Assembly (NCBI GenBank): GCA_038904395.1
Contig: JBCKKC010000002.1
Span: forward strand, 14,285-78,284
Direction: 5' to 3'
From: Acidimicrobiia bacterium
Lineage (GTDB): Bacteria > Actinomycetota > Acidimicrobiia > UBA2766
Length of the DNA stretch: 64,000 nt
The notes beneath the pieces were generated by a model. It was given only the letters and a program-made list of their open reading frames with translations, did no database searches and had not been told where the DNA came from. Of this stretch, positions 4,358 through 64,000 are shown piece after piece. The position numbers were made by a program, and so were the translations under genes. The number at the start of each line of letters is the position of its first letter. Position 1 is the first letter of the stretch.

Positions 4358-4512
4358 AAGACTAGACGGTATTGCGTCGGTTCACGCGTCTTTTCACAGA
4401 AGTCTCGCCCACAATCGGCCAAGCGCATCCGCTCCGGCCCCCAGAATGGATCCCACATCCTGAGCTGCCCGACCTCACTCCAAACTACCTGCGATGAATT
4501 TCACGTGTGGAA

Positions 4513-4630
4513 TTACCCACAGGTTTGTCCACAGCTGTGGATAACTCTTGGAGTTGTCAACACGTTCCCACACAGCCACTCACAGACGATTTACACAAGC
4601 TGTCCACATGACATCCACCGGTTTTCCACA
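4513..4630. promoter_or_regulatory. Cluster of at least six DnaA-box 9-mers upstream of crgA
   Basis: Two boxes are perfect: TTGTCCACA (4525-4533) and TGTGGATAA (4536-4544, the reverse complement of TTATCCACA). Four boxes have one mismatch: TTACCCACA (4513-4521), TTGTCAACA (4554-4562), CTGTCCACA (4600-4608) and TTTTCCACA (4622-4630). Confidence 0.6.
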
Positions 4631-4696
4631 CCCCAGAGTCCACGGCAAGCGAAAAGAGAGCAGGCTCCAAATAAGATCGTCACCATGCAAGGGCTC

Positions 4697-5002
4697 TTAC
4701 GAAACTGTCTCAGGCGCTTCTACTACCAGCACCATCTCTTCACGACAGTGTTTGGGAGGAGCAAATCCCTCAAAATCATCTTCTTCGTCGTCGGCCACCC
4801 GCGTCAACTTCACCTCTGTCGCGCAAACAATGCACCGAAAACGGAGGTCAAAGTTTTCCACATTCATGGTTTGACCTGAAGGTCCGTCTTCGAATGTTGC
4901 CCCAAGCATTGACAGAGTCACAATGCCGATTTTCCACAGCAAGAAGACAATCGCAATCGCGAGAAAAACTAAGATGTAGGGATGATCGCCAAGCCACTTC
5001 AC
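4697..5002 (-). CDS. Hypothetical small membrane protein with CxxC...HC motif
   Basis: The 101-aa ORF has an N-terminal TM helix (ILVFLAIAIVFLLWKIGIV) and an acidic C-terminal half carrying CIVC and HC. No family recognised. Competing plus-strand ORFs look non-coding. Confidence 0.45.
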   Translation of the reverse strand: MKWLGDHPYILVFLAIAIVFLLWKIGIVTLSMLGATFEDGPSGQTMNVENFDLRFRCIVCATEVKLTRVADDEEDDFEGFAPPKHCREEMVLVVEAPETVS

Positions 5003-5066: not shown

Positions 5067-6266
5067 TCAGGCGAGGCGCTCGATGATGGTCGCGTTGGCC
5101 ATGCCGCCGCCCTCGCACATGGTCTGTAGGCCAAAGCGGCCTTCGACACGCTCTAGCTCATTGAGCAAAGTGGCCATTAGTCGGGCACCAGAGGCGCCGA
5201 GTGGGTGCCCAACTGCGATAGCGCCACCATTGACGTTCACCTTAGACAAATCGGCTTTGTGTTCTTTTGCCCATGCCAATACAACTGGCGCAAACGCCTC
5301 GTTTACCTCGAAACGATCGATATCGCCCATGGACATCTTGACACTCTTGAGAACCTTGGTCGTGGCCGGAATAGGCGCGCTCAACATTATCACAGGGTCG
5401 ACTCCGGCCAAAGCGAACGCAATAACGCGAGCTCGAGGCCTTAGACCCAGCGATTCGGCCGTCTTGCGCTCCATAATGAGCACAGCAGCAGCGCCATCAG
5501 TGATCTGCGAAGAGTTACCGGCAGTAATCACGCCATCGGGCTGAAAAACAGTCTTGAGAGAGGCCAGCTTCTCGAGCGTGGTATCTACCCGAATCCCCTC
5601 ATCCCGCGTAAGAGTCTCACCACTGGCACCTTCACCAGTTCTAACTTCCACCGGAATAATCTCGTTCTTAAAACGACCCTCGTCAGCGGCAGCCGCGGCA
5701 CGCTTGTGCGATTGAAAGGAGAACTCGTCGACTTCCTGCCGGGAAATCTTCCACTTTTCGGCCACAATTTCGGCTGATATGCCCTGAGGAACTATTCCAC
5801 CGCGCCCATACAGATTGCGCTCTCGATACATCTCCATCATGCGCGCACCAAAGGGTGCCCCAAAACCTTGCTGCATGGTCGAGCCTAACGGCACCCGACT
5901 CATCGACTCGACACCCGCTGCCACGACTATGTCATATGCTCCAGCGATAACTCCTTGTGCCGCAAAATGAATCGACTGCTGAGATGAACCACACTGGCGA
6001 TCGATCGTGGTACCAGGAGTGGTTTCGGGGTAACCAGCCACCAAGGCCGCGTTGCGAGCAATGTTTAGCCCCTGATCACCAGTCTGGCTAACACACCCCA
6101 TGATCACGTCTTCGACGAGAGCTGGGTCAAGATGGTTCCGCTCAACGAGCGCACGTAGGGTCTCGGCAGCGAGGTCTACTGGATGCCAACCTGAGAGTGC
6201 GCCAACGTTTGGCTTGCCCTTGCCTAACGGCGTCCGTACTGCGTCAACGATGACTGCTTCGCGCAT
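5067..6266 (-). CDS. Acetyl-CoA C-acetyltransferase (thiolase II)
   Basis: The protein shows full-length thiolase similarity. Signatures include the active-site Cys region (IDRQCGSSQQS), NEAFA, GHPLGASG and the C-terminal CEGGGMANA. Confidence 0.9.
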   Translation of the reverse strand: MREAVIVDAVRTPLGKGKPNVGALSGWHPVDLAAETLRALVERNHLDPALVEDVIMGCVSQTGDQGLNIARNAALVAGYPETTPGTTIDRQCGSSQQSIHFAAQGVIAGAYDIVVAAGVESMSRVPLGSTMQQGFGAPFGARMMEMYRERNLYGRGGIVPQGISAEIVAEKWKISRQEVDEFSFQSHKRAAAAADEGRFKNEIIPVEVRTGEGASGETLTRDEGIRVDTTLEKLASLKTVFQPDGVITAGNSSQITDGAAAVLIMERKTAESLGLRPRARVIAFALAGVDPVIMLSAPIPATTKVLKSVKMSMGDIDRFEVNEAFAPVVLAWAKEHKADLSKVNVNGGAIAVGHPLGASGARLMATLLNELERVEGRFGLQTMCEGGGMANATIIERLA

Positions 6267-6302
6267 AGCAAACTCCTCTAGTGGTCTACATCTGTCATGC
6301 TA

Positions 6303-6456
6303 GGGCCCGCGATGAAATTAGTAGCGCGTTTACGGCGAGGAATGGGCGACTCTCGCAAGACGCGACGACGATGTGTACCGAGCTACACGAGGAGGAGGAA
6401 CGCAGCGAGGGGTGTCCAGGCCCGTTGTAAACGCCTAATAATTTCATCGCGGGCCC
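6303..6456. repeat. Family-B palindromic element (inverted orientation, variant termini)
   Basis: The terminal inverted repeats are GGGCCCGCGATGAAATTAGTAGCGCGTTTAC (6303-6333) and GTAAACGCCTAATAATTTCATCGCGGGCCC (6427-6456). The core is the reverse complement of the cores at 9340 and 61883, sharing CCCCTCGCTGCGTTCCTCCTCCTCG and ACATCGTCGTCGCG.CTTGCGAG. Confidence 0.75.
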
Positions 6457-6480
6457 TCGGCCCGCCGAGGAGCGTTGGGC

Positions 6481-7359
6481 CTAGCCGAATCCCAACTGAC
6501 TCGCTCGCACCACCAGAGCGGCTGCGCAGACCAGCATCACACCCCCCACCGTGAGTGCCCGCCAAAGCGTATTCTTGGTGATATCAATAGCAAAGCCAAT
6601 CCCAAATCCGGCAATGACTCCACCTAGATGCGCTTGCCAGGCAATACCGGGCAACAGGCTTATGACAATATTCAGGACGAGCAGCAAGAGAAGCTGGCGC
6701 AAAATGAGCGCACCTTGCGGTGTGCCCCTTTTCCGAATTACGACAACGAGGATGGCTCCGAATAGTCCTGCAATCCCACCCGAGGCACCCACCGCCGGCA
6801 CGTTTTGGGTGGCCATGAGCACAAAGACAACCCCGCCAGCGATGCCACAGGCCATATAGAGCAAGCCATACCAGACTCGGCCTATGAGCTGTTCAAGTTG
6901 AGATCCAAGGATCCACAACGCCACCATATTGAGCAAGATGTGGAACAATCCCGAATGAATAAATAGCGAGGTGACGAGCCGGTACCACTCGCCGTTTAAA
7001 ATTTGTGCCGGAAAAGCCGCCCCGAAAATAAGGATGCGCTCGTTCAGCTGGGGTGTAATTCCGGCCAGAAAGACAAGTACGTTGATGGCTATCAGGACCA
7101 ACGTGACTGGTGCACCCGTTGGTGTTTGTTGCCATCCTGAGCCAGAGCACGCCGACGATCCTGCGACTCCCTTGCGGGGTGCCCCCTGTTGAGCGCAATC
7201 GGGGCATTGGTAGCCAACATCGGCCGGAATCATGCAATCCGTGCAAATTGGACGTCGACAGCGGGAACACCACACTGCCATTTGGACATCAGGATGCCGA
7301 TAACAGGGCGGGTATTCCGTCTCTTCTGGGCTTACTGCCGACTCGGGCGTATCAGTCAT
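6481..7359 (-). CDS. Rhomboid family intramembrane serine protease with N-terminal zinc-ribbon
   Basis: The N-terminus carries Cys pairs (CYRHP..CSRCRRPIC..C..CPDC) ahead of several TM helices. Rhomboid motifs are present: GASGGIAGLFG (GxSG) and AHLGGVIAGFG (HxxGxxxG). Confidence 0.85.
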   Translation of the reverse strand: MTDTPESAVSPEETEYPPCYRHPDVQMAVWCSRCRRPICTDCMIPADVGYQCPDCAQQGAPRKGVAGSSACSGSGWQQTPTGAPVTLVLIAINVLVFLAGITPQLNERILIFGAAFPAQILNGEWYRLVTSLFIHSGLFHILLNMVALWILGSQLEQLIGRVWYGLLYMACGIAGGVVFVLMATQNVPAVGASGGIAGLFGAILVVVIRKRGTPQGALILRQLLLLLVLNIVISLLPGIAWQAHLGGVIAGFGIGFAIDITKNTLWRALTVGGVMLVCAAALVVRASQLGFG

Positions 7360-7381: not shown

Positions 7382-9247
7382 TCACATATATTCTGGACAC
7401 TCTACACCAAGGATGGCGAGGCCGTCTCGCACAGCGATAGCTGTTGCTGCGGCCAACTCGAGCCGAGCCTGTCGAAGGGCAGGATCTTCAGCAAGAACAC
7501 GCAGATCCGTTCGCTCACGTGCTCCCGCAGTTTGATAACTGGCCCAAGCATCGGTAATCGCCAATACTCCGTCTGCCAAGAAGGACGGGTCGTCTGACGC
7601 CAACGCTTGTCTGGCCGCAGTAGGCAACAATGCTATTGCTTTCACGACTCGATGCTCCAATGGATCGTCCAAGAGTGACCGAACTGGAGACCCTTCACCG
7701 CCGATGTCGGTACCCCCGTCGACCGTTAGGGCCGCTTCGATATCAACCCCCGCTTTTGCCAGGATCGAACAGATACGCGCAAACGTGTACTGAACCCGGG
7801 GCGCAGTTTCACCCTTAAACGAAACAGCTTCGTCCAGGTCGAAATCGAAGTCTGCCGTGCGCCGCATACGCACTTGACTGAACAGGACCGCTCCTATGCC
7901 GATCTGCTCTGCTGTCTGAGCCAGCTCTTGACCCTCCGTTGATACGCCTTCGCTAGAGGTCTCACCAGCGACTTTGGCATCCGCAGATTTTAACCGACCC
8001 TCAACCTCGTCCATGGCCCGCTGATGAGCCTCGTCAAGTACGTCGTCCAAGGCCACTGCATCGCCGCCACGGGTCTTTGCCTTGCGTCCACCCAAACGCA
8101 TTTGGCCAAATCCGACGTGCGACAGACCGGCAGCCCAGGCATAGCCGGCCCTTTGCATTGCGGCAAAGAATGACCTGAATCGCCCACCTTGACCCACGTC
8201 AGTTAGGTACACACAACGGTCGAAGGTGAAATCGTGATAGCGCTCAATTGCCGCAGCAATGTCACGGCCTTCGTAGGTAGAAATCCCTTGACTGTTGACA
8301 AGCACGATCGGCTGGAAGCCGTCTTCGGGAGGCACGAAAATTGAGCCATTTTCCGGGTCGACAGATGCCGTTCCCGTCGCTACTAGAGACCTCGCGACGC
8401 CAATTGCCTCATCAAAGTAACGGCTTTCTCCCCTGTACTCATCAAAATGAATGTCGAGTCTCGAGTAAGTCTTGTCTAAGGCCTCGGTGGTTGAGGTGAC
8501 AATCATTTGCCAACGTTGCTGAGCGATACGATCGTTGCTGCTGAGACGCTTGAGCCACCCCCTGGCTGCCGATTTCACCCGTTCCGGTTCCGCTTGTTCC
8601 TCAAGGTTTGCTTCAACGTAAAGCTCTTGTAGCTTCTGTGGAGATAACGCAGGCAACTGGTCGGTCGAGCTTGAATCAGGATCAAGCTCGCTCAGTTTGT
8701 ACAGCAGCAGAGCCATGTTGTGCCCATAATCACCAAGATGGTTTAGACGTACAACTTTGAACCCTCGAGCTTCATAGAGCCTTGCCAGCGCCGCTCCAAT
8801 TGCAGTGCCTCGAAGATGGTGGAAGGCAAGCTTGCGTGCCGCGTTCGGTGAAGAGAAATCGATGACAATTCTCCGGCCCCGGCCCTCTGCCCCAGCAACA
8901 AATCCGCCTGGCAGATCAGAATTAAACGACTGGCGAACTGCCCCAATAGTGTCAGAAGCCAAGCGGCCACGGTCCCAGAAAATATTCACAAATGGACCTT
9001 GCGCTTTGGCCTCGGCCACACATTCAGCCCGCATAGCGGCCTCACTGAACCGGCTAGCAAGCTCATTGGGGTTAACACCCATAGACTTCGCAAATCGATG
9101 ACAGGCAATAGCAACATCGCCTAAATCGTCACGTGGAGGAACAGACAATGACGAACGCAAGTCTTGGGCAGAAATCGCGCTCTCTTGCGCAAGCGCTACG
9201 ATCAGATCATCCTTGAATTGAGATATGGGATCCAAGCTGTCGGCCAT
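7382..9247 (-). CDS. argS: Arginine--tRNA ligase
   Basis: Class I ArgRS layout is visible: IDFSSPNAARKLAFHHLRG (HIGH region) and NHLGDYGHN. A C-terminal DALR-type anticodon-binding domain ends in the typical ..PEYM. Confidence 0.9.
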   Translation of the reverse strand: MADSLDPISQFKDDLIVALAQESAISAQDLRSSLSVPPRDDLGDVAIACHRFAKSMGVNPNELASRFSEAAMRAECVAEAKAQGPFVNIFWDRGRLASDTIGAVRQSFNSDLPGGFVAGAEGRGRRIVIDFSSPNAARKLAFHHLRGTAIGAALARLYEARGFKVVRLNHLGDYGHNMALLLYKLSELDPDSSSTDQLPALSPQKLQELYVEANLEEQAEPERVKSAARGWLKRLSSNDRIAQQRWQMIVTSTTEALDKTYSRLDIHFDEYRGESRYFDEAIGVARSLVATGTASVDPENGSIFVPPEDGFQPIVLVNSQGISTYEGRDIAAAIERYHDFTFDRCVYLTDVGQGGRFRSFFAAMQRAGYAWAAGLSHVGFGQMRLGGRKAKTRGGDAVALDDVLDEAHQRAMDEVEGRLKSADAKVAGETSSEGVSTEGQELAQTAEQIGIGAVLFSQVRMRRTADFDFDLDEAVSFKGETAPRVQYTFARICSILAKAGVDIEAALTVDGGTDIGGEGSPVRSLLDDPLEHRVVKAIALLPTAARQALASDDPSFLADGVLAITDAWASYQTAGARERTDLRVLAEDPALRQARLELAAATAIAVRDGLAILGVECPEYM

Positions 9248-9339
9248 TTCATTTGAACCATTTCGCTAGCGAGTGAATCCAACACTCAAAAAGTAAACTG
9301 CCAGGGCCAGAGGTGAAAGTCTAACCTCATCGAGGCTTA

Positions 9340-9495
9340 GGGCCTGTCGGAGAATTACTTAGTCGTTTGCAACGGCCCGGATCGCCCCTCGCTGCGTTCC
9401 TCCTCCTCGAGTAGGCCTGCTACACATCGTCGTCGCGCCTTGCGAGGGACACCCCGGCCTCGCCGCAAACGCGCTACTAATTCTCCGACAGGCCC
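9340..9495. repeat. Family-B palindromic element flanked by TTA on both sides
   Basis: The termini are GGGCCTGTCGGAGAATTACTTAGTCGTTTGC and GCAAACGCGCTACTAATTCTCCGACAGGCCC. TTA lies at 9337-9339 and again at 9496-9498. The copy is nearly identical to the one at 61883-62038 and sits immediately 3' of tRNA-Ala. Confidence 0.8.
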
Positions 9496-9501
9496 TTACC
9501 G

Positions 9502-9574
9502 TGGAGATGAGGGGATTCGAACCCCTGACCCCCGGCTTGCAAAGCCGGTGCTCTACCAACTGAGCTACATCCCC
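9502..9574 (-). tRNA. tRNA-Ala (anticodon UGC)
   Basis: The reverse complement reads GGGGATGTAGCTCAGTTGGTAGAGCACCGGCTTTGCAAGCCGGGGGTCAGGGGTTCGAATCCCCTCATCTCCA. It folds as a cloverleaf with anticodon loop TTTGCAA and the G3:U70 identity pair. CCA is not encoded. Confidence 0.9.
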
Positions 9575-9766
9575 AAATCAAACTGCCCGCATCGCTACGC
9601 TATTTCTTGCCACTGATTCGCTCTCGGTGGTCTTCGGCCTCGACACTGGGCCCTCAGTAGAATTACAGCGATGCCGACACAAACAAGCGCTCCCACCGCA
9701 ACACCAGCCCGTAGTAAGTACTTGCTCACATGCCACCAACTTGTTCTCATCGCAACGAGCAGCGCG

Positions 9767-9840
9767 TGGGGCTACCTGGATTCGAACCAGGGACCTCATC
9801 CTTATCAGGGATGCGCTCTAACCAACTGAGCTATAGCCCC
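9767..9840 (-). tRNA. tRNA-Ile (anticodon GAU)
   Basis: The reverse complement reads GGGGCTATAGCTCAGTTGGTTAGAGCGCATCCCTGATAAGGATGAGGTCCCTGGTTCGAATCCAGGTAGCCCCA. The anticodon loop is CTGATAA and the T-arm is GGTTCGAATCC. Confidence 0.9.
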
Positions 9841-11567: not shown

Positions 11568-11611
11568 GAAGCCCCCTTTCTGATCAAGATTCTGATCAGA
11601 AAGGGGGCTTC
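11568..11611. terminator. Bidirectional hairpin terminator between the Pro-rich membrane gene and gyrA
   Basis: A 19-bp perfect stem pairs GAAGCCCCCTTTCTGATCA (11568-11586) with TGATCAGAAAGGGGGCTTC (11593-11611). It lies in a convergent intergenic region. Confidence 0.7.
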
Positions 11612-11691: not shown

Positions 11692-14199
11692 CTACTCTTC
11701 GATTTCTATTTCAATCTCGATTTCGACTGATTCACAGGCGACAGCAGTGATGTGTTCACCAGATGTCAGAGCTATCATCTTTACACCAGTTGCGGAGCGC
11801 CCTTGTCGACTAACACCACTAGAATCCTGGCGAATCATAACGCCTGAGCTGTTCATGAGAATGACTCTGTCACTTTCCTCAACAACAAGCGCTGCAACGA
11901 TTTGGCCCTTGTTCTGCGGCAATTTCATCGCTACCAGCCCGAGGCCGCCCCGCCCTTGAGGGCGAAAGTCGGTCACTGGTGTCCGCTTACCAAAGCCAAA
12001 GTCGGTCACCATCAGGACATCGAGACCATCTCTGGCCACTGCTGCCGACACGACCTCATCGCCGGTGCGCAGGGCTATGCCCCTCACTCCCCCAGCGCTG
12101 CGTCCCATCGCTCTCACATCAGACTCGGCGAAACGTATTCCCATGCCCTTGCGAGTCACGATCATTGCGTCTTCGTCACCAGACGTGGTTAGAACACTGA
12201 CTAACTCATCATCGTCCCGCAATCGAATGGCAATGATTCCATCACGTCGTGACGAATCATATTCCTGAAACTTTGTCTTCTTGACAACGCCAGCCTTCGT
12301 CACCATTACCAGATACCGCATGGTCTCGTAGTCACGGGCATCGATTATCGCTTGGATTCTCTCACCACTCGACACGGGCAAAAACTGACCGAGGGCAGCG
12401 CCTTTAGCCGTCCGATCCCGGATCGGAATTTCGTGCGCCTTGATCCGGTAGACCTTGCCCCGGTTCGAGAAGAACAGCAAATAGGAGTGGGCCGTGGTCG
12501 CAAGCACATGCTCGACGTAGTCGCCATCGCGCAACTTGCCGCCGGTCACGCCTCGACCGCCCCGACTCTGGGTCCGGACTGCTTCCTGGGCGACAGCCTT
12601 GATGAAGCCATTGCGAGTCAGTGTGACAACTACTTCTTCGTCGTCTATCAGATCTTCGATATCAAACTCACCAGCATCAGAGATGATCTCGCTACGACGA
12701 GCATCACCGAAACGCTCTTTGGCATCCGTCAGCTCATCTTTGACCACACCACGCAACTTTTCGGGATTGGCCAAAATCGATTCCAATTCAGCAATGGTCT
12801 CAGCCAATTGCGCTAACTCTTCACGGAGCTTGGTCATTTCCAGAGACGTGAGGCGCCGAAGCGGCATGTCAAGTATGTGATTGGCCTGAATTTCACTTAC
12901 GCCAATTTGTTCCATAAGTGACGTGCGGGCGGCATCAACATCGCTGGATGCTCGAATGATCGCAACCACTTCATCGATACGATCAAGAGCAATGAGCAGA
13001 CCCTCAACGATGTGCGCCCTCGCTTGAGCCTTCGCTAAGCGGAAATTGGTGCGGCGCTCGATAACCTCGATCTGGTGCGCAACATAGTGCGACACCAGCT
13101 CACCCAGCGACAGTGTTCGAGGGACACCGTCGACAAGCGCCACCACATTGGCACCGAAAGTGTCTTGAAGCTGCGTGTGCTTGTAGAGGTTGTTAAGCAC
13201 AACATGTGCATTTGCGTCACGTCGCAATTCGACGATCAAACGTGGACCATCTTTGTCAGAATGGTCCGCAACATTAGCGATCCCGTCAATCTTGCCGTCG
13301 CGTACAAGGTCTGCGATACGTTCAGCAGTTCGCTGCAGCGAAGCCTGGTAGGGCAGCTCTGTGGCGATAATTCGCTGACGACCGGACTTGAGCTCAACAA
13401 TCTCGGTCCGAGCCCGAACCTTAATCGAACCCCGACCTGTCATGTAAGCATCGCGAATACCGCTCCTACCCACGATCAATCCGCCTGTCGGAAAGTCGGG
13501 CCCCTTCACAAATCGCATCAAATCTTCTGATTGCGCCTCAGGGTTGTCGATCGCATAAATGACTGCATCAACGACTTCCGTTAGGTTGTGCGGAGGAATA
13601 TTCGTTGCCATACCAACGGCAATACCAGAAGATCCATTCACTAAAAGATTCGGAAACCTACTCGGAAGCACAACTGGCTCTTTGTGCTGGCCGTCATAGT
13701 TCTCAACGAAGTCAACAGTGTCTTCATCAATCCCTTCCAGCATCCGCATAGCGAGATCGTTGAGGCGGGCCTCTGTATAACGCATGGCAGCGGCAGGAAA
13801 GTCGATCGAACCCCAGTTTCCCTTTGGGTCTATGAGCGGATGACGCATGGCAAAATCTTGGGCCATACGAACCAAGGCATCATAAATGGCCGAGTCGCCG
13901 TGGGGGTGGTAGCGAGCCATAACGAGGCCAACAGCGTTCGCGCTCTTTTGCCTCTGACGATCCGGACGCATGCCGCTTTCGAACATCCCGTACAAAATGC
14001 GCCTGTGCACAGGCTTGAGTCCATCACGCACGTCAGGCAAAGCTCGAGACACGATCACCGACATGGAGTATTCCATGAAGGAGCTTTTCATCTCTTCTTC
14101 AATGTCGATAGGCACAATGCCTCTGGGTAGCTCTTGTGACTCCAGAGGAGGCGTAGGTGGAATGGGTGGTTGAGGGGGTGGTTGCATGGAATCTGTCAT
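11692..14199 (-). CDS. gyrA: DNA gyrase subunit A
   Basis: The protein shows full-length GyrA similarity, including RALPDVRDGLKPVHRRILY, the active-site AAMRYTE and C-terminal beta-pinwheel repeats. It ends in an (EI)n acidic tail, SVEIEIEIEIEE. Confidence 0.95.
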   Translation of the reverse strand: MTDSMQPPPQPPIPPTPPLESQELPRGIVPIDIEEEMKSSFMEYSMSVIVSRALPDVRDGLKPVHRRILYGMFESGMRPDRQRQKSANAVGLVMARYHPHGDSAIYDALVRMAQDFAMRHPLIDPKGNWGSIDFPAAAMRYTEARLNDLAMRMLEGIDEDTVDFVENYDGQHKEPVVLPSRFPNLLVNGSSGIAVGMATNIPPHNLTEVVDAVIYAIDNPEAQSEDLMRFVKGPDFPTGGLIVGRSGIRDAYMTGRGSIKVRARTEIVELKSGRQRIIATELPYQASLQRTAERIADLVRDGKIDGIANVADHSDKDGPRLIVELRRDANAHVVLNNLYKHTQLQDTFGANVVALVDGVPRTLSLGELVSHYVAHQIEVIERRTNFRLAKAQARAHIVEGLLIALDRIDEVVAIIRASSDVDAARTSLMEQIGVSEIQANHILDMPLRRLTSLEMTKLREELAQLAETIAELESILANPEKLRGVVKDELTDAKERFGDARRSEIISDAGEFDIEDLIDDEEVVVTLTRNGFIKAVAQEAVRTQSRGGRGVTGGKLRDGDYVEHVLATTAHSYLLFFSNRGKVYRIKAHEIPIRDRTAKGAALGQFLPVSSGERIQAIIDARDYETMRYLVMVTKAGVVKKTKFQEYDSSRRDGIIAIRLRDDDELVSVLTTSGDEDAMIVTRKGMGIRFAESDVRAMGRSAGGVRGIALRTGDEVVSAAVARDGLDVLMVTDFGFGKRTPVTDFRPQGRGGLGLVAMKLPQNKGQIVAALVVEESDRVILMNSSGVMIRQDSSGVSRQGRSATGVKMIALTSGEHITAVACESVEIEIEIEIEE

Positions 14200-24064: not shown

Positions 24065-24237
24065 CCGTCATTGCGAGGAAAGCGAGTAATCATTCACGTC
24101 CCCACGGGCCCGAGCGGTGCTGCCAGGCTATTCGTCATTGCGAGGAGCCGCTCTGGGCGACGAAGCAACCTAGTCCGTGACTTATGCCACGAAAACGCAA
24201 GTCGCCGATTAGCTGGCCTCGCTGCGCTCGCAATGAC
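24065..24237. repeat. Family-A palindromic element, composite copy with duplicated left terminus
   Basis: CCGTCATTGCGAG occurs at 24065 and CGTCATTGCGAG again at 24133. The inner arm AAGCAACCTAGTCCGTGAC is present, and the right terminus CTCGCAATGAC lies at 24227-24237. The second inner arm is degenerate. Confidence 0.75.
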
Positions 24238-24286
24238 AGGGTGGGGAACGTAAATGGTTACGTCGTTGTTGAAATTCGACGGTGAG

Positions 24287-36645: not shown

Positions 36646-38925
36646 TCACGGCGTTTCTGCGTCATTGCGGTCCTTCGGGATGACCGGGGTCAACCTAGTC
36701 CCTGACTCAAGATTTGTAAGATACGAGTCACGGACTAGGTTGCTTCGCTGCGCTCGCAATGACGGAGGGGGTCCTGAACTATACGTCGGTGATTTCTTGA
36801 GTTTGCGGCGCCGCCGAGCGTGGACTATCCACCACACCCCTAAGAACGATATAGATCCGACGGTCAGAGCTATCGCCACGCCATTTGCTGCCGTGCTCTG
36901 GACTAGCACCCGGCCTTGTGTCAGCAGAATCTGATCGTCGGGCGATGTGACTCGGATCTTGATTGGATATGTGCCGGTGCTTGGGGTATCAATTGCAAAT
37001 TCGGTGGTTGCACTTTGAGATGACACCGTGAGTATCGTCTCGTTTCCGTTCGGAAAGGTGATGCCCGGAGAAGATAAAGTCACTTTGAGCCGTAGGGAGA
37101 GACCCGAATTGTTGTGAATTGAAACCGGCAACGTGGCATGTCGTGACGTGAGCGTCAGCTCCCTCTGATTGGGCAGTTGGATTGACTTGAATTTAGCAGT
37201 GGTGGCGTCGGTCACATGCCTAGAGTACGCAGCACTTGTGCCGTCAGTAATCAATGTTGAGTCCACCGATTCCAGAACTGTGGTGTTTAGGTCGGCTAGC
37301 TCTCGGTGCGCTGGACCGTCTGGGTCAGCTACTAGTTGTTCTAACTGTGACAGCTGACTGCTGGCCTGTATCGATTGGTTGTACATGGCCATTGCTGCAC
37401 TTGTAGGTACGGCGTTGGGTCGGGTCAGTGGGAGAGTGCGCAACTTGCCTTGTGAGCTGCGGGCGTCTGGAACCTCGTTCAGTAAATTCTCGGCCGAGAG
37501 AAGGCGAACATGCGGTGCGTTTGCCAGGCGTGAGAGCGAGGCACTCAAAGTTGATTCGGGTGCAGACCAATCCCATGGCGGCATCAGCACTGTCCCACGA
37601 ATTTGTGACGGCTCGTCCAGATAGATCATTGTCAGGTCTGCCAAGAGCTGCTGACTACTAGCAGTGGGGCCGCCCGCTGCTGTCAGGTCGTTTGGCAAGT
37701 TTGGATCAGCACGCAGAATTCGCATGTCGTTAAGTTTGTCGACGTGGAACGGTTGATTGACCGAGAAACTTCCCCGCGGCACTGTTACAGCACTCGGCTC
37801 GACAACTACTGCTTGGGCACCATGGGCCTCCATTGTTTGCAGAGCAGAGGTGGCAACATATGGTCCGGGAGCAACTTGGATTTTGGTGTCGAAGGTGCCA
37901 AATTCGGTCTTCATGACTTCTTCTGCACCTGCAAACTGTCGGTCTGCTTCTGTGGCAATAGCACTCCAGGCATCGCTGTCGACGTGGGAATACGAGCCAC
38001 TGTATACGGGGTGGGTTCGACTGGTGGTCACCAACGAATTGGCGACCGTGCTGGCTGCTGGATCATTCTGAGAGAGCTTGCGCACGCGGCTAAATGTATC
38101 GGGCACAACTAAAAGCGAGATAGGTGACGGGGTGGTCGAAGCGACTCTCGCCAACGTGGCAAGTCGCCCTTGAGATTGTTGATCTTGCGATAGGTCAGCT
38201 CGCAGCGACGTGTCTGGGCCCATTGGGGCCCGGGGTGGAGGTGAATACACCGGCCAAAGCCAAGTGAAACGGAGTGGTTCGTCAACGTTGGTTGAGAGCT
38301 TTATAGCGAAAGTCGTGAGCGTTGCCAAGGCGTCGGTACGGCCGGCATGACGCAATTGGATGTTGACGGGATAAACGCCATTGCGGCGCAGACTAATGCG
38401 ATTATTATCGCTGGTTCCCGATTCCGCTACGACGGGGCCAATCTGGGCAAGGAACGGATGATCGGATGTGGTGCTGGAGCCGGAGGGGGCATTTGTCAGT
38501 GGCGCTGTCAGTAACTGCAAGGTCGAGGTGTTTGCACCCTTAGTGGCTTGAATGAGATCAGCTCGAGACGACAGCGACGATCCAAAAATATAAGCAACCT
38601 CTAAATCGGTTGGGCTATCGGGCGCCTTTATAGCTACTGAAATGGACAGCTTGTCACCCGCGTGGACTACCGCAGGGATTTCAAGGAGGCTAATGTCATA
38701 CTCAGATTGTTGCGAGTTGACCTTGTCGCCGTGTGGCCGGTTAGTTTGCGCAGTTTGTGGATTTGGCCTTGGGGTTGGTGCGGCAAGGAGCTGGCCAGAT
38801 GTGACTGTGATGACGAAGAGGAGCGCTGTTACCGCCACCAGTGTGGGTCGCAGCGCCCAACTCATCAGAGTGGTATTTCGCTTCGCAGAGCGCTTCCTGG
38901 TTGGGTGTACTCTTTTGACAAACAT
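36646..38925 (-). CDS. Large secreted / C-terminally anchored protein (Rv3909-like position, DUF6049-like)
   Basis: The 759-aa protein has an N-terminal signal/TM and a C-terminal TM (IALTVGSISFLGVWWIV). Position upstream of murJ is conserved. The last ~38 codons are encoded by the family-A repeat. The family name comes from memory of synteny, not from a search. Confidence 0.75.
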   Translation of the reverse strand: MFVKRVHPTRKRSAKRNTTLMSWALRPTLVAVTALLFVITVTSGQLLAAPTPRPNPQTAQTNRPHGDKVNSQQSEYDISLLEIPAVVHAGDKLSISVAIKAPDSPTDLEVAYIFGSSLSSRADLIQATKGANTSTLQLLTAPLTNAPSGSSTTSDHPFLAQIGPVVAESGTSDNNRISLRRNGVYPVNIQLRHAGRTDALATLTTFAIKLSTNVDEPLRFTWLWPVYSPPPRAPMGPDTSLRADLSQDQQSQGRLATLARVASTTPSPISLLVVPDTFSRVRKLSQNDPAASTVANSLVTTSRTHPVYSGSYSHVDSDAWSAIATEADRQFAGAEEVMKTEFGTFDTKIQVAPGPYVATSALQTMEAHGAQAVVVEPSAVTVPRGSFSVNQPFHVDKLNDMRILRADPNLPNDLTAAGGPTASSQQLLADLTMIYLDEPSQIRGTVLMPPWDWSAPESTLSASLSRLANAPHVRLLSAENLLNEVPDARSSQGKLRTLPLTRPNAVPTSAAMAMYNQSIQASSQLSQLEQLVADPDGPAHRELADLNTTVLESVDSTLITDGTSAAYSRHVTDATTAKFKSIQLPNQRELTLTSRHATLPVSIHNNSGLSLRLKVTLSSPGITFPNGNETILTVSSQSATTEFAIDTPSTGTYPIKIRVTSPDDQILLTQGRVLVQSTAANGVAIALTVGSISFLGVWWIVHARRRRKLKKSPTYSSGPPPSLRAQRSNLVRDSYLTNLESGTRLTPVIPKDRNDAETP
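36660..36765. repeat. Family-A palindromic element between the Rv3909-like gene and murJ
   Basis: The termini are CGTCATTGCGG (36660-36670) and CTCGCAATGACGG (36753-36765). The inner hairpin pairs CAACCTAGTCCCTGACTC with GAGTCACGGACTAGGTTG. Confidence 0.8.
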
Positions 38926-50963: not shown

Positions 50964-52766
50964 CTAGGCGGGTTGACGGGTCGTGAAGTCTTCAAACTTG
51001 GATAGGTGCTCCAAGAAGGCGAGGCGAATCGTGTCGGTAGGCCCATTACGATGCTTGGCGATGATCAGCTCGGCTTCACCCCGCTCAGTGCTCTCAGCAC
51101 CGTGGTAGTAATCGTCTCGGTATAAGAACGCCACAATATCGGCATCTTGCTCAATCGAATTGTGAGCGATCACCCCATTGGCAACGAAATTGTGCGTCCC
51201 CTCAACGGTGGCATCGAATGTTGGCATCGGGCCTAGTGACTCAATCTCCTTTACCTCATCCCAGTGGACATCAGACGTAGCCAGATCAACCATGGCTGGA
51301 TCATCGATTGAGGCGATTGCATCGCCAACATTTAGTTCGTCGAGGCGGGTCCAGCCGTCGAGCCTTCTGAACGGGTGGTTGGCTGTTGCCTCGACTTCGT
51401 AGCCAGAGGCGAGGCGCAGTCGAAAAACGGGCTTGATGCCGGATGGGAAGGTCCGCACCAGTCGACGTGGCACTATCCGCCACCTTTCATCGAGCGACCA
51501 CACAAGGGGTTGCTCCTGGCTGAGGACTAGCTCGCCAAGGGTAACTTCCTTGCCGTTGTCAGCTCGCAAGAGGCGAGTATTGGCCGGCATGCAACCGGAC
51601 TCTCTTAAGTCGCCGAGCATGGGGCGTTTGTCGGAACGGGACTCGGGGGAACGGTTGAGCTGGCAGGCGGCGATTATGGGGGTGGATAGCTCTCTGGCGA
51701 GAGTCTTGAGGTTTCGAGAGATTTCGGCGATTTCGACTTGGCGGCTTTCGGGGCGGCCGGAACCGTGCATCAGCTGCAAGTAGTCAACAATGATTAGGCC
51801 TAGCGGCTGCGATGCGGCGAGTCGGCGACACTTTGCCCTGATGTCGAGTACGGATGTGTAAGCAGAATCGTCAATGTAGAGAGGCGCATTTGAGAGGACT
51901 CCGACCGTGTGGGCGATACGTGACCAGTCTTGATCGCCCAGTGCTCCCGTCTTAATCTTTTGCGCCTCAACTTTGGATTCTGCACATAGGAGGCGATTGA
52001 CGATCTCCATCTTGGACATTTCGAGGGTAAAAAAAGCGACGGCCTTGTGTTGCTCGAGCGCGGCGTGAGTGGCAATGTTGGCAATAAAACACGACTTGCC
52101 CATGCCAGGGCGAGCAGCGACAATCATTAGGTTTGACGGCTGCAAGCCAGCAGTGAGGCGATCAAAGTCACGAAAGCCAGTCGACAAACCGGTGATCTCG
52201 GTGCCGCGTAGCTGCATTTGCTCCAAAGACCGCAAGCTATCGTCGAGCAGCTCACGCAAGTGTGAGAACTGGGACGAGCGGCGTTCCTGGCTGATATTGA
52301 AGACGAGTCCTTCAGCATCGTCGAGAACCTCGGAGGGGTCGACTCCTGGCTGGTAAGCCTTCTCGGAAATCTCGGATGAAACTTCGATGAGTCGGCGCAT
52401 CATTGCGCACTGGCGAACGATTTCGGCGTAGTAACCGGCATTAGAAGTCGACGGCGTATCGGCAGTTAGGGCCCGCAGATATGAGAGGCCGCCCAGTTGT
52501 TCAAGCGAATTTGATTTACGCAGCTCTTCGGAGAGCGTGACAGCATCGACCGGTTCGCCCTTGCCATACAAGTTGATGATCGCTTCGAAGATGCGACCGT
52601 GCAAGCCCCGATAGAAATCGTCAGCAGTAACCTCTTCGATGGCCATACCAATGGCATCTTTGGACAGCAACATGGCGCCAAGCAATGACTGCTCGGCTTC
52701 GAGATTTTGTGGAGGCACGCGGCCGTGCGTATTCAGTTGCTCTAACGAATGCACGGTTTGTGCCAT
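50964..52766 (-). CDS. dnaB: Replicative DNA helicase DnaB, interrupted by a mini-intein
   Basis: The N-terminus reads PPQNLEAEQSLLGAML. Walker A is ARPGMGKS and Walker B is IIVDYLQLM. The arginine finger region is split by an insertion between RESG and SIEQDAD. Confidence 0.93.
   Translation of the reverse strand: MAQTVHSLEQLNTHGRVPPQNLEAEQSLLGAMLLSKDAIGMAIEEVTADDFYRGLHGRIFEAIINLYGKGEPVDAVTLSEELRKSNSLEQLGGLSYLRALTADTPSTSNAGYYAEIVRQCAMMRRLIEVSSEISEKAYQPGVDPSEVLDDAEGLVFNISQERRSSQFSHLRELLDDSLRSLEQMQLRGTEITGLSTGFRDFDRLTAGLQPSNLMIVAARPGMGKSCFIANIATHAALEQHKAVAFFTLEMSKMEIVNRLLCAESKVEAQKIKTGALGDQDWSRIAHTVGVLSNAPLYIDDSAYTSVLDIRAKCRRLAASQPLGLIIVDYLQLMHGSGRPESRQVEIAEISRNLKTLARELSTPIIAACQLNRSPESRSDKRPMLGDLRESGCMPANTRLLRADNGKEVTLGELVLSQEQPLVWSLDERWRIVPRRLVRTFPSGIKPVFRLRLASGYEVEATANHPFRRLDGWTRLDELNVGDAIASIDDPAMVDLATSDVHWDEVKEIESLGPMPTFDATVEGTHNFVANGVIAHNSIEQDADIVAFLYRDDYYHGAESTERGEAELIIAKHRNGPTDTIRLAFLEHLSKFEDFTTRQPA
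51159..51593 (-). mobile_element. DnaB mini-intein (145 aa, no homing endonuclease domain)
   Basis: The insert begins with Cys (CMPANTRLL, block A), has the TxxH block B (EATANHPF), and ends VIAHN followed by Ser +1. Removing it restores the contiguous DnaB motif LRESG/SIEQDADIV. Confidence 0.85.
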
Positions 52767-61509: not shown

Positions 61510-61875
61510 GTGACGGCCATGGGAATGCGAAGCGATTGTCGGCACTATTTTGTTCGCACCCTGCCGAATGGGGAACGCCAAGAAGGCTGTGCCATAAATG
61601 CGGCTCCCGAGGCGCCTTTGCGGTGTCCAGTCGATTGTCCGTATTTTGAGAAGCGTGGATTGTCTAAGGCCGGGTTCGTGTACGGGTCTCTAGTGCCCAA
61701 GGGTGTAGAGCCCCAAGAGTCCCAGACCAGCACAGATCCTGACGACGAGTCGGCTCTGGAGGAGTTGCGTAGCCTGATGGACGACATTGGTCCGCAAGTT
61801 GTTAGCGAAGAGGCCGCACGGGCCGATCGGCAGCAGCCACGTCACAAGCGTCGGTGGCGCAAGCGAAAAAACTAG
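61510..61875 (+). CDS. Hypothetical four-Cys protein with basic C-terminus
   Basis: The Cys pattern is C-x17-C-x12-C-x3-C (CRHYF...GCAINAAPEAPLRCPVDCPYF), suggesting a metal or Fe-S site. The tail is acidic then basic (RQQPRHKRRWRKRKN). Confidence 0.45.
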   Translation: MTAMGMRSDCRHYFVRTLPNGERQEGCAINAAPEAPLRCPVDCPYFEKRGLSKAGFVYGSLVPKGVEPQESQTSTDPDDESALEELRSLMDDIGPQVVSEEAARADRQQPRHKRRWRKRKN

Positions 61876-61882
61876 GCCGTTA

Positions 61883-62038
61883 GGGCCTGTCGGAGAATAA
61901 CTTAGTCGTTTGCAACGGCCCGGACCGCCCCTCGCTGCGTTCCTCCTCCTCGAGTAGGCCTGCTACGCATTGTCGTCGCGCCTTGCGAGAGTCGGCCCAG
62001 TCTCGCCGCAAACGCACTACTTATTCTCCGACAGGCCC
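61883..62038. repeat. Family-B palindromic element flanked by TTA on both sides, abutting the sdhB stop codon
   Basis: The termini are GGGCCTGTCGGAGAATAACTTAGTCGTTTGC and GCAAACGCACTACTTATTCTCCGACAGGCCC. TTA lies at 61880-61882 and at 62039-62041. The right TTA is the complement of the sdhB TAA stop. Confidence 0.8.
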
Positions 62039-62743
62039 TTAGTTTGATTCGCGCAGTATCTCTCGTTTGACCTCTTGAATAGCGGCTGTGACCTTGATTC
62101 CGCGGGGGCAGGCCTCAGTGCAGTTGAAAGCCGTTTTGCACCGGAACACGCCGGATTTCTCGGCCAAAATGTTGAGACGTTCTGGCCCAGCGTCGTCACG
62201 GGAATCGAAAATAAATCGATGCGCAGTGACGATTGCCGCCGGGCCTACGTAGGAGCCAGAACCCCAATAGATTGGACACGAAGTAGTGCAAGCGGCGCAC
62301 AAGATGCACTTGGACGTATCGTCGAATCGCTCTCGTTGCTCAGGCGATTGCAGCCGTTCGCCCTCCGAAGATGATTGGTCGTTGATCAGGTAAGGCAAAA
62401 CCGACTTGTAGCCGTCAAAGAAGGGCTCCATGTCCAGGATTAGGTCTCGCAACAACGGCAAGCCTCTGAGCGGTTCCACACGGATTGGTTTGTCGGGGTT
62501 TGCGTCCCGAATCAGGAGTTGGCAAGCCAGCTTATTGGAACCGTTGATCATCATGGCGTCTGACCCGCAAACTCCGTGGGCACATGAGCGACGAAAACCG
62601 AGGGTGCCATCGGTATTGCGCTTCACAGATATGAGCGCATCAAGGACACGATCCATCGGATCGACCTCAACCGAATAGTTTTCCCAGTGCGGCTTTGAGT
62701 CCTGCTCTGGGATATATCGCAAAATACTTAAGGTGATTTGCAT
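62039..62743 (-). CDS. sdhB: Succinate dehydrogenase / fumarate reductase iron-sulfur subunit
   Basis: Three Fe-S cluster motifs are present: CAHGVCGSD for 2Fe-2S, CILCAACTTSCP for 4Fe-4S, and CKTAFNCTEACP for 3Fe-4S. Confidence 0.92.
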   Translation of the reverse strand: MQITLSILRYIPEQDSKPHWENYSVEVDPMDRVLDALISVKRNTDGTLGFRRSCAHGVCGSDAMMINGSNKLACQLLIRDANPDKPIRVEPLRGLPLLRDLILDMEPFFDGYKSVLPYLINDQSSSEGERLQSPEQRERFDDTSKCILCAACTTSCPIYWGSGSYVGPAAIVTAHRFIFDSRDDAGPERLNILAEKSGVFRCKTAFNCTEACPRGIKVTAAIQEVKREILRESN

Positions 62744-62756
62744 AGTTGGAATCCTA

Positions 62757-62915
62757 GCGCTGCAATCCGGAAATGCCGGGCATGTACGACGGCCCCCGAC
62801 GCCCCTCGCTTCGTTGCTCGTCGGTTATGAACGTCCGGTTCACGCCCTCCTCGGCGCCTTGCAAGGAACGCCGGATGGCTCGCCGTACACGCGCCGTACT
62901 TCCGAATCGCAGCAC
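62757..62915. repeat. Divergent family-B element filling the sdhA-sdhB intergenic spacer
   Basis: The terminal inverted repeats are GCGCTGCAATCCGGAAATGCCGGGCATGTACGAC and GCCGTACACGCGCCGTACTTCCGAATCGCAGCAC. The core shares GCCCCTCGCT.CGTT and CGCCTTGCAAG / GGCTCGCC with the other copies. TA flanks both ends. Confidence 0.6.
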
Positions 62916-64000
62916 TAGTATTTTCGTTCCATGGGAGCGTGGCGGCCGCCAATAACAGGCTTGTATTCGAGTCGTGGAACGTATCCTGTCGAGGGCTTGT
63001 AGGCCAGCGAATGCTTCATCCAGTTTTCGTCGTCACGGTCTCTGTAGTCGTCTCGAGCGTGTGCCCCACGTGATTCGCGCCGTGCGAGAGCGGATGCGAC
63101 GACGCAGTCTGCTAGGTCGATAAGAAAGCCCAATTCGAGGCATTCCATCAGGTCTGAGTTCCAGGCGCTGCCATGGTCGTCAATCACAACCTGATCGTAA
63201 CGTTCATGCAGTTGTGTGAGCTCTGCTTGCATTTCTGTAAGCAGAGCCTCGTCACGGAACACGCCGGCCTTTTCCATCATTTGACTCTGCAGGTCGGACC
63301 GGATATCGCCGTATCGTTCGCCGTCTTTTCGGGTCATGATTTTCGACAGCATTTCGGTGACAAAGCTGTCTGCGTCGGCCGGCAGGGGGGCGAGTTCATT
63401 TGATTGGGCGAATCCGCGGGCAGCGGCTCCGGCTCGACGGCCAAACACGACTATGTCGAGGAGAGAGTTGGTGCCTAAACGGTTGGCGCCGTGCACCGAT
63501 ACGCACGCGCATTCGCCTGCCGCATACAACCCGGGTATCACTGTCGCTTGTGGACCCGTGACTACTTCGCCGATGGCGTTTGTGGGGATACCGCCCATCG
63601 CATAGTGCGCTGTCGGTTGGATCGGTATCAGGTCGGTCTTGGGTTCAATACCCAGGTAGGTGCGCACGAAGTCGGTAATGTCGGGCAGCTTTGCGTCGAT
63701 TTGTTCAGGCGGCAGATGAGTCAGGTCAAGATGCACATAGTCGCCGCCGTCAATCCCTCGACCCTCTCGTAGTTCCATAAAGATTGCCCGGCTCACCATA
63801 TCGCGAGGGGCGAGGTCTTTGATGGTCGGGGCGTAACGCTCCATAAAGCGTTCCCCCTCACTGTTGCGCAAGATGCCGCCCTCACCCCGGGCCGCTTCAG
63901 ACAGCAAGATGCCAATTTTGTAGATGCCTGTGGGGTGAAATTGGAAGAACTCCATGTCTTCCAATGGAATGCCGCGCCGATAGAGGGCGCCAGGCCCGTC
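62915..64000 (-). CDS. sdhA: Succinate dehydrogenase / fumarate reductase flavoprotein subunit (C-terminal part, 5' end outside window)
   Basis: Motifs include FHPTG, the active-site [22 protein letters not shown] and RESRGAH. The reading frame stays open to the window edge. Confidence 0.92.

Follow-up and report, generated by a model that had tools for sequence, protein, structure and literature searches.

A putative miniature inverted-repeat transposable element with covarying arms and a conserved core in the replication-origin region of an Acidimicrobiia bacterium

The DNA analyzed here, referred to as the window, is a stretch of 64,000 nucleotides from an Acidimicrobiia bacterium (GenBank assembly GCA_038904395.1, contig JBCKKC010000002.1, positions 14,285 to 78,284 of the forward strand), and it represents the replication-origin region of an actinobacterial chromosome. 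Genes were called with a length-greedy open reading frame (ORF) caller and identified with Pfam. They include pknB, a sortase gene, gyrA/B, dciA, recF, dnaN, dnaA, rnpA, yidC, rsmG, and parB, as well as dnaB (with an intein), purH, folD, icd, mdh, and sdhAB; the closest named relatives of the encoded SdhB protein are from Acidimicrobiia (76% identity). Dispersed among these genes are four copies, each of about 156–159 bp, of a hairpin-forming repeat, which is the subject of this report. We consider it probable that they belong to a new family of non-autonomous DNA transposons, some 156–177 bp long, that resemble MITEs, the miniature inverted-repeat transposable elements. The copies lie at 6303–6456 (inverted), 9340–9495, 61883–62038, and 62757–62915, and are named below by their first coordinate; the strand which folds better is called the sense strand, and all elements were aligned on it.

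6303..6456, sense strand plus: copy 1, antisense to the rhomboid gene (6481–7359) and the thiolase gene (5067–6266)
9337..9498, sense strand minus: copy 2 including both flanking TTA (UAA on the sense strand)
61883..62038, sense strand minus: copy 3, with TTA at 61880–61882 and 62039–62041
62757..62915, sense strand minus: copy 4, which represents a diverged subtype and has the termini GUGCUGCG.../...UGCAGCGC and TA repeats at 62755–62756 and 62916–62917, within CTAG

An initial annotation, made from the sequence alone, had placed four copies at these positions, and all of them were recovered by three approaches. A nhmmer profile built from the four copies returned each with an E-value of 1e-43 to 1e-53. 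With filters switched off, a core covariance model applied to the whole window gave exactly four matches (E approximately 1e-23; next-best match, E approximately 1), each on one strand only. The degenerate core pattern matched four times where 0.08 matches are expected by chance. The covariance model revealed no fifth copy in the window; elsewhere, profile and covariance-model searches contributed to the finding of 19 full-length elements described below. The core strings which had been described as common to all copies are identical in three of them, but copy 62757 carries the variant CCCCTCGCTTCGTTGCTCGTC...GCGCCTTGCAAGG. Pairwise identity is 92% between 9340 and 61883, about 81% between 6303 and either of these, and about 64% between 62757 and the others.

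All four copies are situated at gene ends, as had been noted. Copy 9340 begins 2–3 nt past tRNA-Ala and upstream of argS, on the same (minus) strand as both, and copy 6303 separates the rhomboid stop from the thiolase start and is oriented opposite to both genes. Copy 61883 adjoins the sdhB stop, which is the TTA at 62039–62041 (TAA on the minus strand) flanking the element; a convergent stop is 7 nt away from this copy. Copy 62757, in sense orientation, overlaps with the stop of sdhA and leaves 13 nt between its end and the ATG of sdhB; the TA repeat and the first base of the element together make up the stop codon of sdhA, TAG (62915–62917). Pfam analysis of the 58 long ORFs in the window revealed no transposase, in agreement with the annotation, and no reverse transcriptase, recombinase, or Y1/RAYT (REP-associated tyrosine transposase) protein.

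Each element can be folded into a long hairpin (family length 156–177 bp). The anatomy consists of a basal stem of approximately 55 bp with a small internal loop and a non-palindromic central module of about 50 nt (5′ strand AAGGCGC(AC)CGACG.., 3′ strand GANGAGNAACGNAGC), which includes, between its two strands, an apical hairpin varying in sequence and length (13–45 nt). Within the module AAGGCG..CGACG faces GANGAGNAACGNAGCGAGGGG in a conserved asymmetric internal loop, and the closing stem pairs CGUUCCUCGC with GCGAGGGGCG. The parts of copy 2 and its immediate neighbors, in the order in which they are read on the minus strand, are as follows.

9501–9574, minus: tRNA-Ala
9496..9498, no strand: first TTA of the target-site duplication, 2–3 nt downstream of the tRNA-Ala 3′-end
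9442..9495, minus: 5′ arm of the sense hairpin, GGGCCUGUCGGAGAAUUAG...GUGUCCCUCGC, which differs between subfamilies and covaries with the 3′ arm
9393..9441, minus: central non-palindromic module
9424–9441, minus: 5′ loop strand, AAGGCGCGACGACG..
9411–9423, minus: small variable apical hairpin, GUAGCAGGCCUAC
9393–9410, minus: highly conserved 3′ loop strand, ..GAGGAGGAGGAACGCA
9340..9392, minus: 3′ arm, starting with the invariant GCGAGGGG, which forms G·U wobbles with C/U-variable partners
9337..9339, no strand: second TTA of the target-site duplication, at the other end of copy 2
7382–9247, minus: argS

Shuffle controls were run on copies 9340 and 62757. For 9340 the two strands fold with −79.9 and −96.6 kcal/mol (z-scores of −7.5 and −8.2 against shuffles), and for 62757 with −68.5 and −107.8 kcal/mol (z-scores of −3.2 and −10.9, the latter being the lowest obtained). 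In copy 62757 the more stable of the two is the mRNA strand, which includes 11 G·U pairs. The RNAfold pairing in three copies runs 5–7 bp into the flanks (CCUCAUC/GAUGAGG, GCGAA/UUCGC, and UGGAA/UUCCA, in folds of 9335–9510, 61868–62050, and 62744–62935), an extension which may be due to chance.

The outer arms differ between the window copies while their complementarity is kept. In the RNAalifold consensus of 36 pairs, 96.2% of cells are in standard pairs, compared with 78% after column shuffling and 40–55% when the partners are slid, and in 23 of the 36 pairs both partners have changed. The covariation score amounts to 0.549 against 0.219; none of 500 shuffles reached the observed values. 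Compensated changes can also be seen within a single genome (OZ242339), where the arms of L020, L024, and L026 read CGTGGG/CCCACG, CTTGGG/CCCAAG, and CGCAGG/CCTGCG. The claim that both arms change together with pairing preserved is therefore upheld by a covariance-based check of the stem, in which the signal lies well above both shuffled and slid controls, and these results support the view that it is the hairpin, rather than the sequence of the arms, that is conserved.

This does not extend to the whole element. The initial annotation had argued for selection on a long hairpin rather than on the sequence itself, which holds for the arms, but the non-palindromic core is conserved at the sequence level, far above the termini, and the hairpin is strand-asymmetric. 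Identity by region among six subfamily representatives is as follows.

Arms: 36–51%
Core 5′ strand: 68–70%
Apical hairpin: 42%
Core 3′ strand: 81–86%

The asymmetry between strands was examined by aligning the 5′ arm to the reverse complement of the 3′ arm, a procedure which is blind to the type of mismatch. The sense strand contains 835 Watson-Crick, 122 G·U, and only 7 A·C cells, and the last two numbers are exchanged on the other strand; a rough count gives at least 25 independent G·U events against at most 7 A·C events, the latter mostly singletons. A tandem U·G facing the invariant GGGG is found in 19–20 of 22 copies, and GCGAGGGG faces a partner that alternates between C and U from lineage to lineage (CGUUCCUCGC, GUCCCUCGC, CGUUUUUGGU, CUUUUCUCGC), including L027 and L018, which are described below. 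The sense strand was the better folder in every folded comparison (approximately 22 elements). Because copies occur in both orientations, a mild replication or transcription mutation bias is insufficient to account for a ratio of 122:7. We therefore infer that selection acts on the single-stranded hairpin of one particular strand, be it RNA or single-stranded DNA (ssDNA).

With element boundaries set at the hairpin ends, TTA is found at both sides of 9340 and of 61883, and CTAG at both sides of 62757, which amounts to a TA duplication; the flanks given in the annotation for these three copies are correct. In sense notation, the window subtype and the elements from metagenome project SDBV01 show TAA..TAA (9340, 61883, and L032) or TTA..TTA (L039 and L040), with one flank mismatch in L037 and L031. 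The middle base of the flank is identical, in direct orientation, in 7/7 cases, which argues for a 3-bp TWA duplication since an extension of the palindrome would give complementary bases. Copy 62757, the elements of a group termed Pori-type, and L027 exhibit C-TA|G...C|TA-G flanks. For reference, TA makes up 3.2% of the dinucleotides of the window. Duplication of TWA (TAA/TTA) is a hallmark of the IS5 family (IS427/IS1031) and of PIF/Harbinger elements rather than of IS630, and duplications of 2–4 bp centered on TA/CTAG also belong to these families; 3-bp TWA or 2–4 bp TA-centered duplications are what is found here. The strict 2-bp TA of IS630/Tc1-mariner fits the Pori-type elements, 62757, and L027 within CTAG, but a 3-bp TWA is the better description of the window/SDBV subtype. 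The annotation had compared the flanks to the TA duplication of IS630/mariner-type MITEs. Target-site duplications are indeed present, but in the light of the TWA repeats, and with no parent insertion sequence (IS) found, IS630 parentage is unproven.

Comparison with related genomes reveals the same junctions without the element. The sdhA-sdhB spacer measures 11 nt in L050 and 37 nt in L053 (11–37 nt among relatives L050–L055), and the spacer downstream of sdhB 20 nt in L050 and 54 nt in L053 (20–54 nt among the same relatives). A convergent junction between GH1 and AAA_5 genes carries an element in L020 and merely a 31-nt spacer in L056/L057. If copy 62757 and one repeat are deleted, TAC TAG GATTCCAACT ATG remains, that is, a sdhA-sdhB spacer of 10 nt, which may be compared with the 11 nt of L050. 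In L060 (4261–4384), the counterpart of the element-bearing L020 junction is occupied by another palindromic spacer, GC-rich and 124 nt long (CTAGCCCCGATAGGGCGG...GGGGCTAGG...), which is not a member of the family.

A degenerate-core scan of one genome per species and of Joint Genome Institute (JGI) metagenomes, followed by profile and covariance-model searches, yielded the 19 further full-length elements, at unrelated loci. Five of these, with arms GGGCCCGCCGCAG, originate from SDBV01 and are nearest to the window type. The Pori-type group, with arms GTGGTGTGTCG, is found in Candidatus Poriferisocius, other Acidimicrobiales, Sva0996, and an Ircinia-derived bin, and an eroded Pori-type copy occurs in Candidatus Spongiisociaceae. 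Most of the further copies are in metagenome-assembled genomes (MAGs) whose names point to sponge-associated Acidimicrobiia. Two are more distant: L027 is a complete gammaproteobacterial chromosome with one copy (63 bits), and L018 a contig of Candidatus Azambacteria, a member of the candidate phyla radiation (CPR), with a 105-nt short form (76 bits). One and the same core is thus accompanied by unrelated arms and by flanks of different types in Acidimicrobiia, in L027, and in L018, the last two assignments being taken from MAG taxonomy. L018 contains two convergent short core modules, at 4471–4574 (plus) and 4648–4753 (minus), 73 nt apart, the second of which is diverged (AAGGAGTGACGACG ... 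AAGGAGGAGTGACGCCG). Approximately 27 other exact-pattern matches in the genome and metagenome scans were without a hairpin and were dismissed as chance.

Two orthologous pairs of copies, in genomes which have diverged by about 9%, are 98.8% identical (160/162), compared with 84–94% for the flanking coding DNA; orthologous copies are kept unchanged by selection or gene conversion and not merely tolerated. No match to the core pattern or the element was obtained among viral contigs, plasmids, and phages. In Rfam 15 no family reached its gathering threshold on the element, and in the window only tRNAs did so; the best sub-threshold matches to the element were plant miRNA-precursor models, at 20 bits where 142–168 are required. 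Literature searches by sequence strings and keywords found no specific prior description, and as far as these show the family has not been described before.

No conserved neighboring gene exists among the copies. The duplicated TAA/TAG constitutes the stop codon of the adjacent gene at approximately eight sites overall, about six sites lie in divergent promoter spacers 11–36 nt from start codons, and many copies are located in divergent or convergent spacers. In co-directional contexts four copies are antisense (6303, L039, L007, and L010) and three or four are sense (9340, 62757, L027, and perhaps L037). Among the copies examined there is no orientation bias relative to transcription of the flanking genes, nor, judging from copy strands and the position of the dnaA/dnaN origin, relative to replication.

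The general properties of bacterial MITEs fit this class of element (Delihas 2008, PMC2229807). As in that description, the element is small, non-coding, and present in multiple dispersed copies (four in 64 kb); it possesses terminal inverted repeats and a long stem-loop (arms of approximately 55 nt, 96% of cells paired), and it has TA termini with a target-site duplication in all window copies save 6303. It is not A+T-rich, having a GC content of 62–69% compared with 54.5% for the window. Correia/NEMIS of Neisseria, ERIC/IRU of enterobacteria, and RUP of Streptococcus pneumoniae are likewise non-coding, 100–200 bp long, dispersed between genes, and bounded by inverted-repeat arms; they share TA termini with target duplication and long predicted stem-loop transcripts, and are often co-transcribed with their neighbors (PMC2229807). 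In contrast to these AT-rich repeats, with which no sequence relationship is known, the present element is GC-rich, its arms of about 55 bp are much longer and are its least conserved part, its core shows conservation across phyla, the duplication in the window subtype is of 3 bp (TWA), and its wobbles are strand-biased. RUP matches IS630-Spn1, whereas no parent IS was identified here. The TWA or TA/CTAG-centered duplication is held in common with Tourist-like MITEs of the PIF/Harbinger and IS5 (IS427/IS1031) families, so that membership in that group is a lead. Similarities to REPINs, which are hairpins formed by pairs of repetitive extragenic palindromic (REP) sequences, include the long ssDNA/RNA hairpin and changes that compensate each other; activity is low in both, and both remain at orthologous sites for long times (PMC3116915). 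The element differs from REPINs in its variable ends and conserved center and its locus-dependent flank duplications, and no RAYT is present in the window. Integron attC sites also function as one folded strand, with structure conserved above sequence and an apical part of variable length; the element lacks R″/R′ (RYYYAAC/GTTRRRY) boxes, cassette arrays, and a nearby integrase, and its conserved part is central rather than basal. An integron attC identity was accordingly rejected, as GTTRRRY ends are lacking and the neighbors are housekeeping genes.

According to the MITE-like reading which we favor, a transposase encoded elsewhere would make a staggered cut at a TA-centered target, TWA for the window subtype and (C)TA(G) for the others, and paste in the element with duplication of the target. 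In genomes of 55–70% GC such targets would largely be stop codons and short intergenic spacers, and the element would land flush with gene ends, regenerating the stop codon. The position of the copies at gene ends follows from the fact that the target TAA/TAG is itself a stop codon, and there is no sign of recruitment for function. The sequence of the basal stem drifts while pairing persists, and persistence or propagation seems to depend on the strand-specific single-stranded hairpin (RNA or ssDNA) and the core, not on the terminal sequence. The mover is presumably a DDE-type enzyme; the duplication lengths point to an IS5-family (IS427/IS1031) or Harbinger-like enzyme at least as much as to one of IS630 type. 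Any effect on host genes is likely to be incidental: the very stable stem-loop in co-transcribed RNA could alter its stability or processing.

Several observations weigh against this interpretation. Copy 6303 is without a flanking repeat, having CTA at one side and TCG at the other. Neither a parent IS nor solo termini or longer relatives were encountered in the window and loci L001–L055, and mobilization by a transposase is therefore presumed. The annotation had looked to empty sites in relatives for a TA; the element is absent from syntenic junctions, but these relatives are 71–85% identical and reveal presence or absence, not the exact TA that preceded insertion. Complete genomes of 3.6–4.0 Mb contain 2–3 exact-core copies each and no burst, although an exact-core scan undercounts. 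Whereas conservation resides in the termini of a classic MITE, it is lowest there in the present element, whose center is conserved across phyla. The near-constancy of orthologous copies suggests a function or gene conversion and not selfish junk, and strand-biased G·U pairs are unexpected for cut-and-paste of double-stranded DNA. A conserved asymmetric core with fast-evolving covarying arms and strand-biased wobbles goes beyond the known kind of MITE.

It is conceivable, though unlikely, that the core functions as a structured RNA or as a module of strand-specific ssDNA, in other words as a small mobile noncoding RNA or regulatory module (e.g., protein-binding or guide-like) which is selected for its own activity and not for transposition only, the arms being a mere vehicle. 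Conservation of the loops in sequence and of the stems in pairing only is the classic signature of an RNA, and the excess of G·U over A·C, the invariant GCGAGGGG with its C/U-toggling partners, the one-stranded match of the covariance model, the recurrence of the core with unrelated arms and flanks in Acidimicrobiia, L027, and L018, and the constancy of orthologous copies relative to their flanks all agree with such a role. The random orientation to genes, however, means that the sense strand is often not the strand transcribed by the host; prediction gave no sigma-70-like promoter within or beside the copies scanned (the four of the window and L005), there is no Rfam match, no complementarity to E. 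coli rrn-operon rRNA or tRNA, and no conserved neighbor gene, and the placement of L018 and L027 depends on MAG taxonomy. More speculatively, and with rather little expectation on our part, the core may act as a single-stranded module, be it RNA or ssDNA, with a function, which would be carried on arms of different transposase specificities and would have spread between Acidimicrobiia, Gammaproteobacteria, and CPR bacteria. This module would comprise 5′ AAGGCG..CGACG, the variable apical hairpin, 3′ GANGAGNAACGNAGCGAGGGG, and the closing stem with its conserved G·U, and the arms would be of two types, with GGGCC ends and TWA duplication or with GTG ends and CTAG. If true, it would be a mobile structured nucleic acid with an activity of its own and not a deletion derivative of an IS, possibly a cofactor or guide for the mobilizing enzyme, or a regulator. 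That the covariation of the arms is instead a mutational by-product, replication template switching having copied changes between the arms of a quasi-palindrome, appears to us rather doubtful. Template switching is an established mechanism in bacterial quasi-palindromes, and near-perfect arms which diverge rapidly between subfamilies, even within one genome, would be in keeping with it. It should, however, erase every type of mismatch, yet the tandem U·G is retained in nearly all copies together with the 122:7 excess of G·U, and it leaves the conserved internal loop unexplained. The arms may owe part of their concerted evolution to template switching, which leaves the retained G·U pairs unexplained.

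We think it very unlikely that the elements are REPIN-like, or ssDNA mobilized by an HUH/Y1 enzyme (RAYT or IS200/IS605-type) which recognizes the folded strand. The strand-asymmetric hairpin, the low copy number, the long persistence at orthologous sites, and compensatory changes as described for REPINs (PMC3116915) are shared features. The pattern of conservation is nevertheless reversed, in that REPINs consist of conserved terminal 16-mers and a variable spacer, whereas here the ends show 36–51% and the center 68–86% identity; moreover, there is no Y1_Tnp/RAYT gene within the 64-kb window and no GTAG head motif. The locus-dependent flank repeats (TAA or TTA) indicate a staggered-cut duplication, which Y1 transposition is not known to produce. 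The least probable explanation by our estimate, and one that we hold to be highly improbable, is that of host-selected terminators or RNA-processing sites at gene ends, a use suggested in the initial annotation. Very stable stems are located there, a small terminator-like hairpin with a U-run is partly formed by the end of copy 61883, and the RNAs of Neisseria and Yersinia MITEs are substrates of RNase III or RNase E (PMC2229807). Set against this, the elements are in general not followed by a U-tract, their flanks being TAA, TAG, and the like; orientation is random; copy 62757 resides in sense orientation inside the sdhA-sdhB junction, where termination would be harmful; some six sites are in divergent promoter spacers; relatives do without the element at the same junctions; and the TA/TAA/TAG target explains the placement. 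Scans for sigma-70 promoters and terminators revealed nothing specific to the four window copies and L005, and we have abandoned the proposed terminator use.

Three further ideas were rejected. As to mimicry of, or complementarity to, rRNA or tRNA, the E. coli rrn operon gave only chance matches of at most 11 nt. One frame of the core translates as EEQRSEGR, and a GTG..TAG ORF spans the core in 62757, but no frame is consistently open and the starts are not conserved, which speaks against coding or translational coupling. The motif GGAGGAG is not a Shine-Dalgarno sequence, being lost in 62757 and L027 (GACGAG) and having no start codon at a suitable distance.

The hairpins are of practical concern, as they create spurious ORFs (e.g., 6297–6554 and 62728–62952); since they are flush with stops, starts, and the 3′-end of a tRNA, gene callers and operon models can be led astray by them in Acidimicrobiia MAGs. 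With a hairpin of 55-bp stem in the sdhA-sdhB junction and another 3 nt past tRNA-Ala, the RNA machinery must handle both, and they offer natural test cases for effects on expression. The combination of structure-preserving evolution, a conserved core, and strand bias is not predicted by simple cut-and-paste of double-stranded DNA, and hints at a single-stranded step or a role as RNA. The presence of one core in several phyla, mostly in MAGs with sponge-derived names, could mark horizontal exchange within that community.

A number of minor observations were made in the course of this work. In the protein search the SdhB of the window was outscored by P0001 (L049, 1079–2290), a SdhB-like protein of 403 amino acid residues for which Fer2_3 is listed twice. 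It was rejected as a near-identical relative, as it is a duplicated-domain protein on an unrelated contig, the latter being 67% identical to the window and only in sdhA. The tRNA-Ala(UGC) gene next to copy 2 and the tRNA-Ile(GAU) gene (9501–9840, minus) stand by themselves downstream of a DUF3566 gene and gyrA, the window being devoid of rRNA genes; the former has no encoded CCA, and the duplication of the element starts 2–3 nt past its 3′-end. ARAGORN predicts a 96-nt tRNA-Leu(tag) at 63568–63663 (plus) inside the sdhA ORF (62915–63964, minus), which is without Rfam support and probably a false positive. The dnaB gene (50964–52766, minus) contains a Pfam Intein_splicing domain at residues 402–536. 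A perfect 19-bp palindrome with a 6-nt loop (GAAGCCCCCTTTCTGATCA/TGATCAGAAAGGGGGCTTC; 11568–11611), unrelated to the element family, is found just downstream of gyrA (11692–14199, minus). A second hairpin repeat, family A, occurs at 1977–2083, 36660–36765, and 24067–24240, with outer arms CGTCATTGCGAG...CTCGCAATGACG and inner arms GCAACCTAGTCCGTGAC/GTCACGGACTAGGTTGC; it has the short motif CCTCGCAA/TTGCGAGG in common with the core of the element described here, which the annotation had termed family B.

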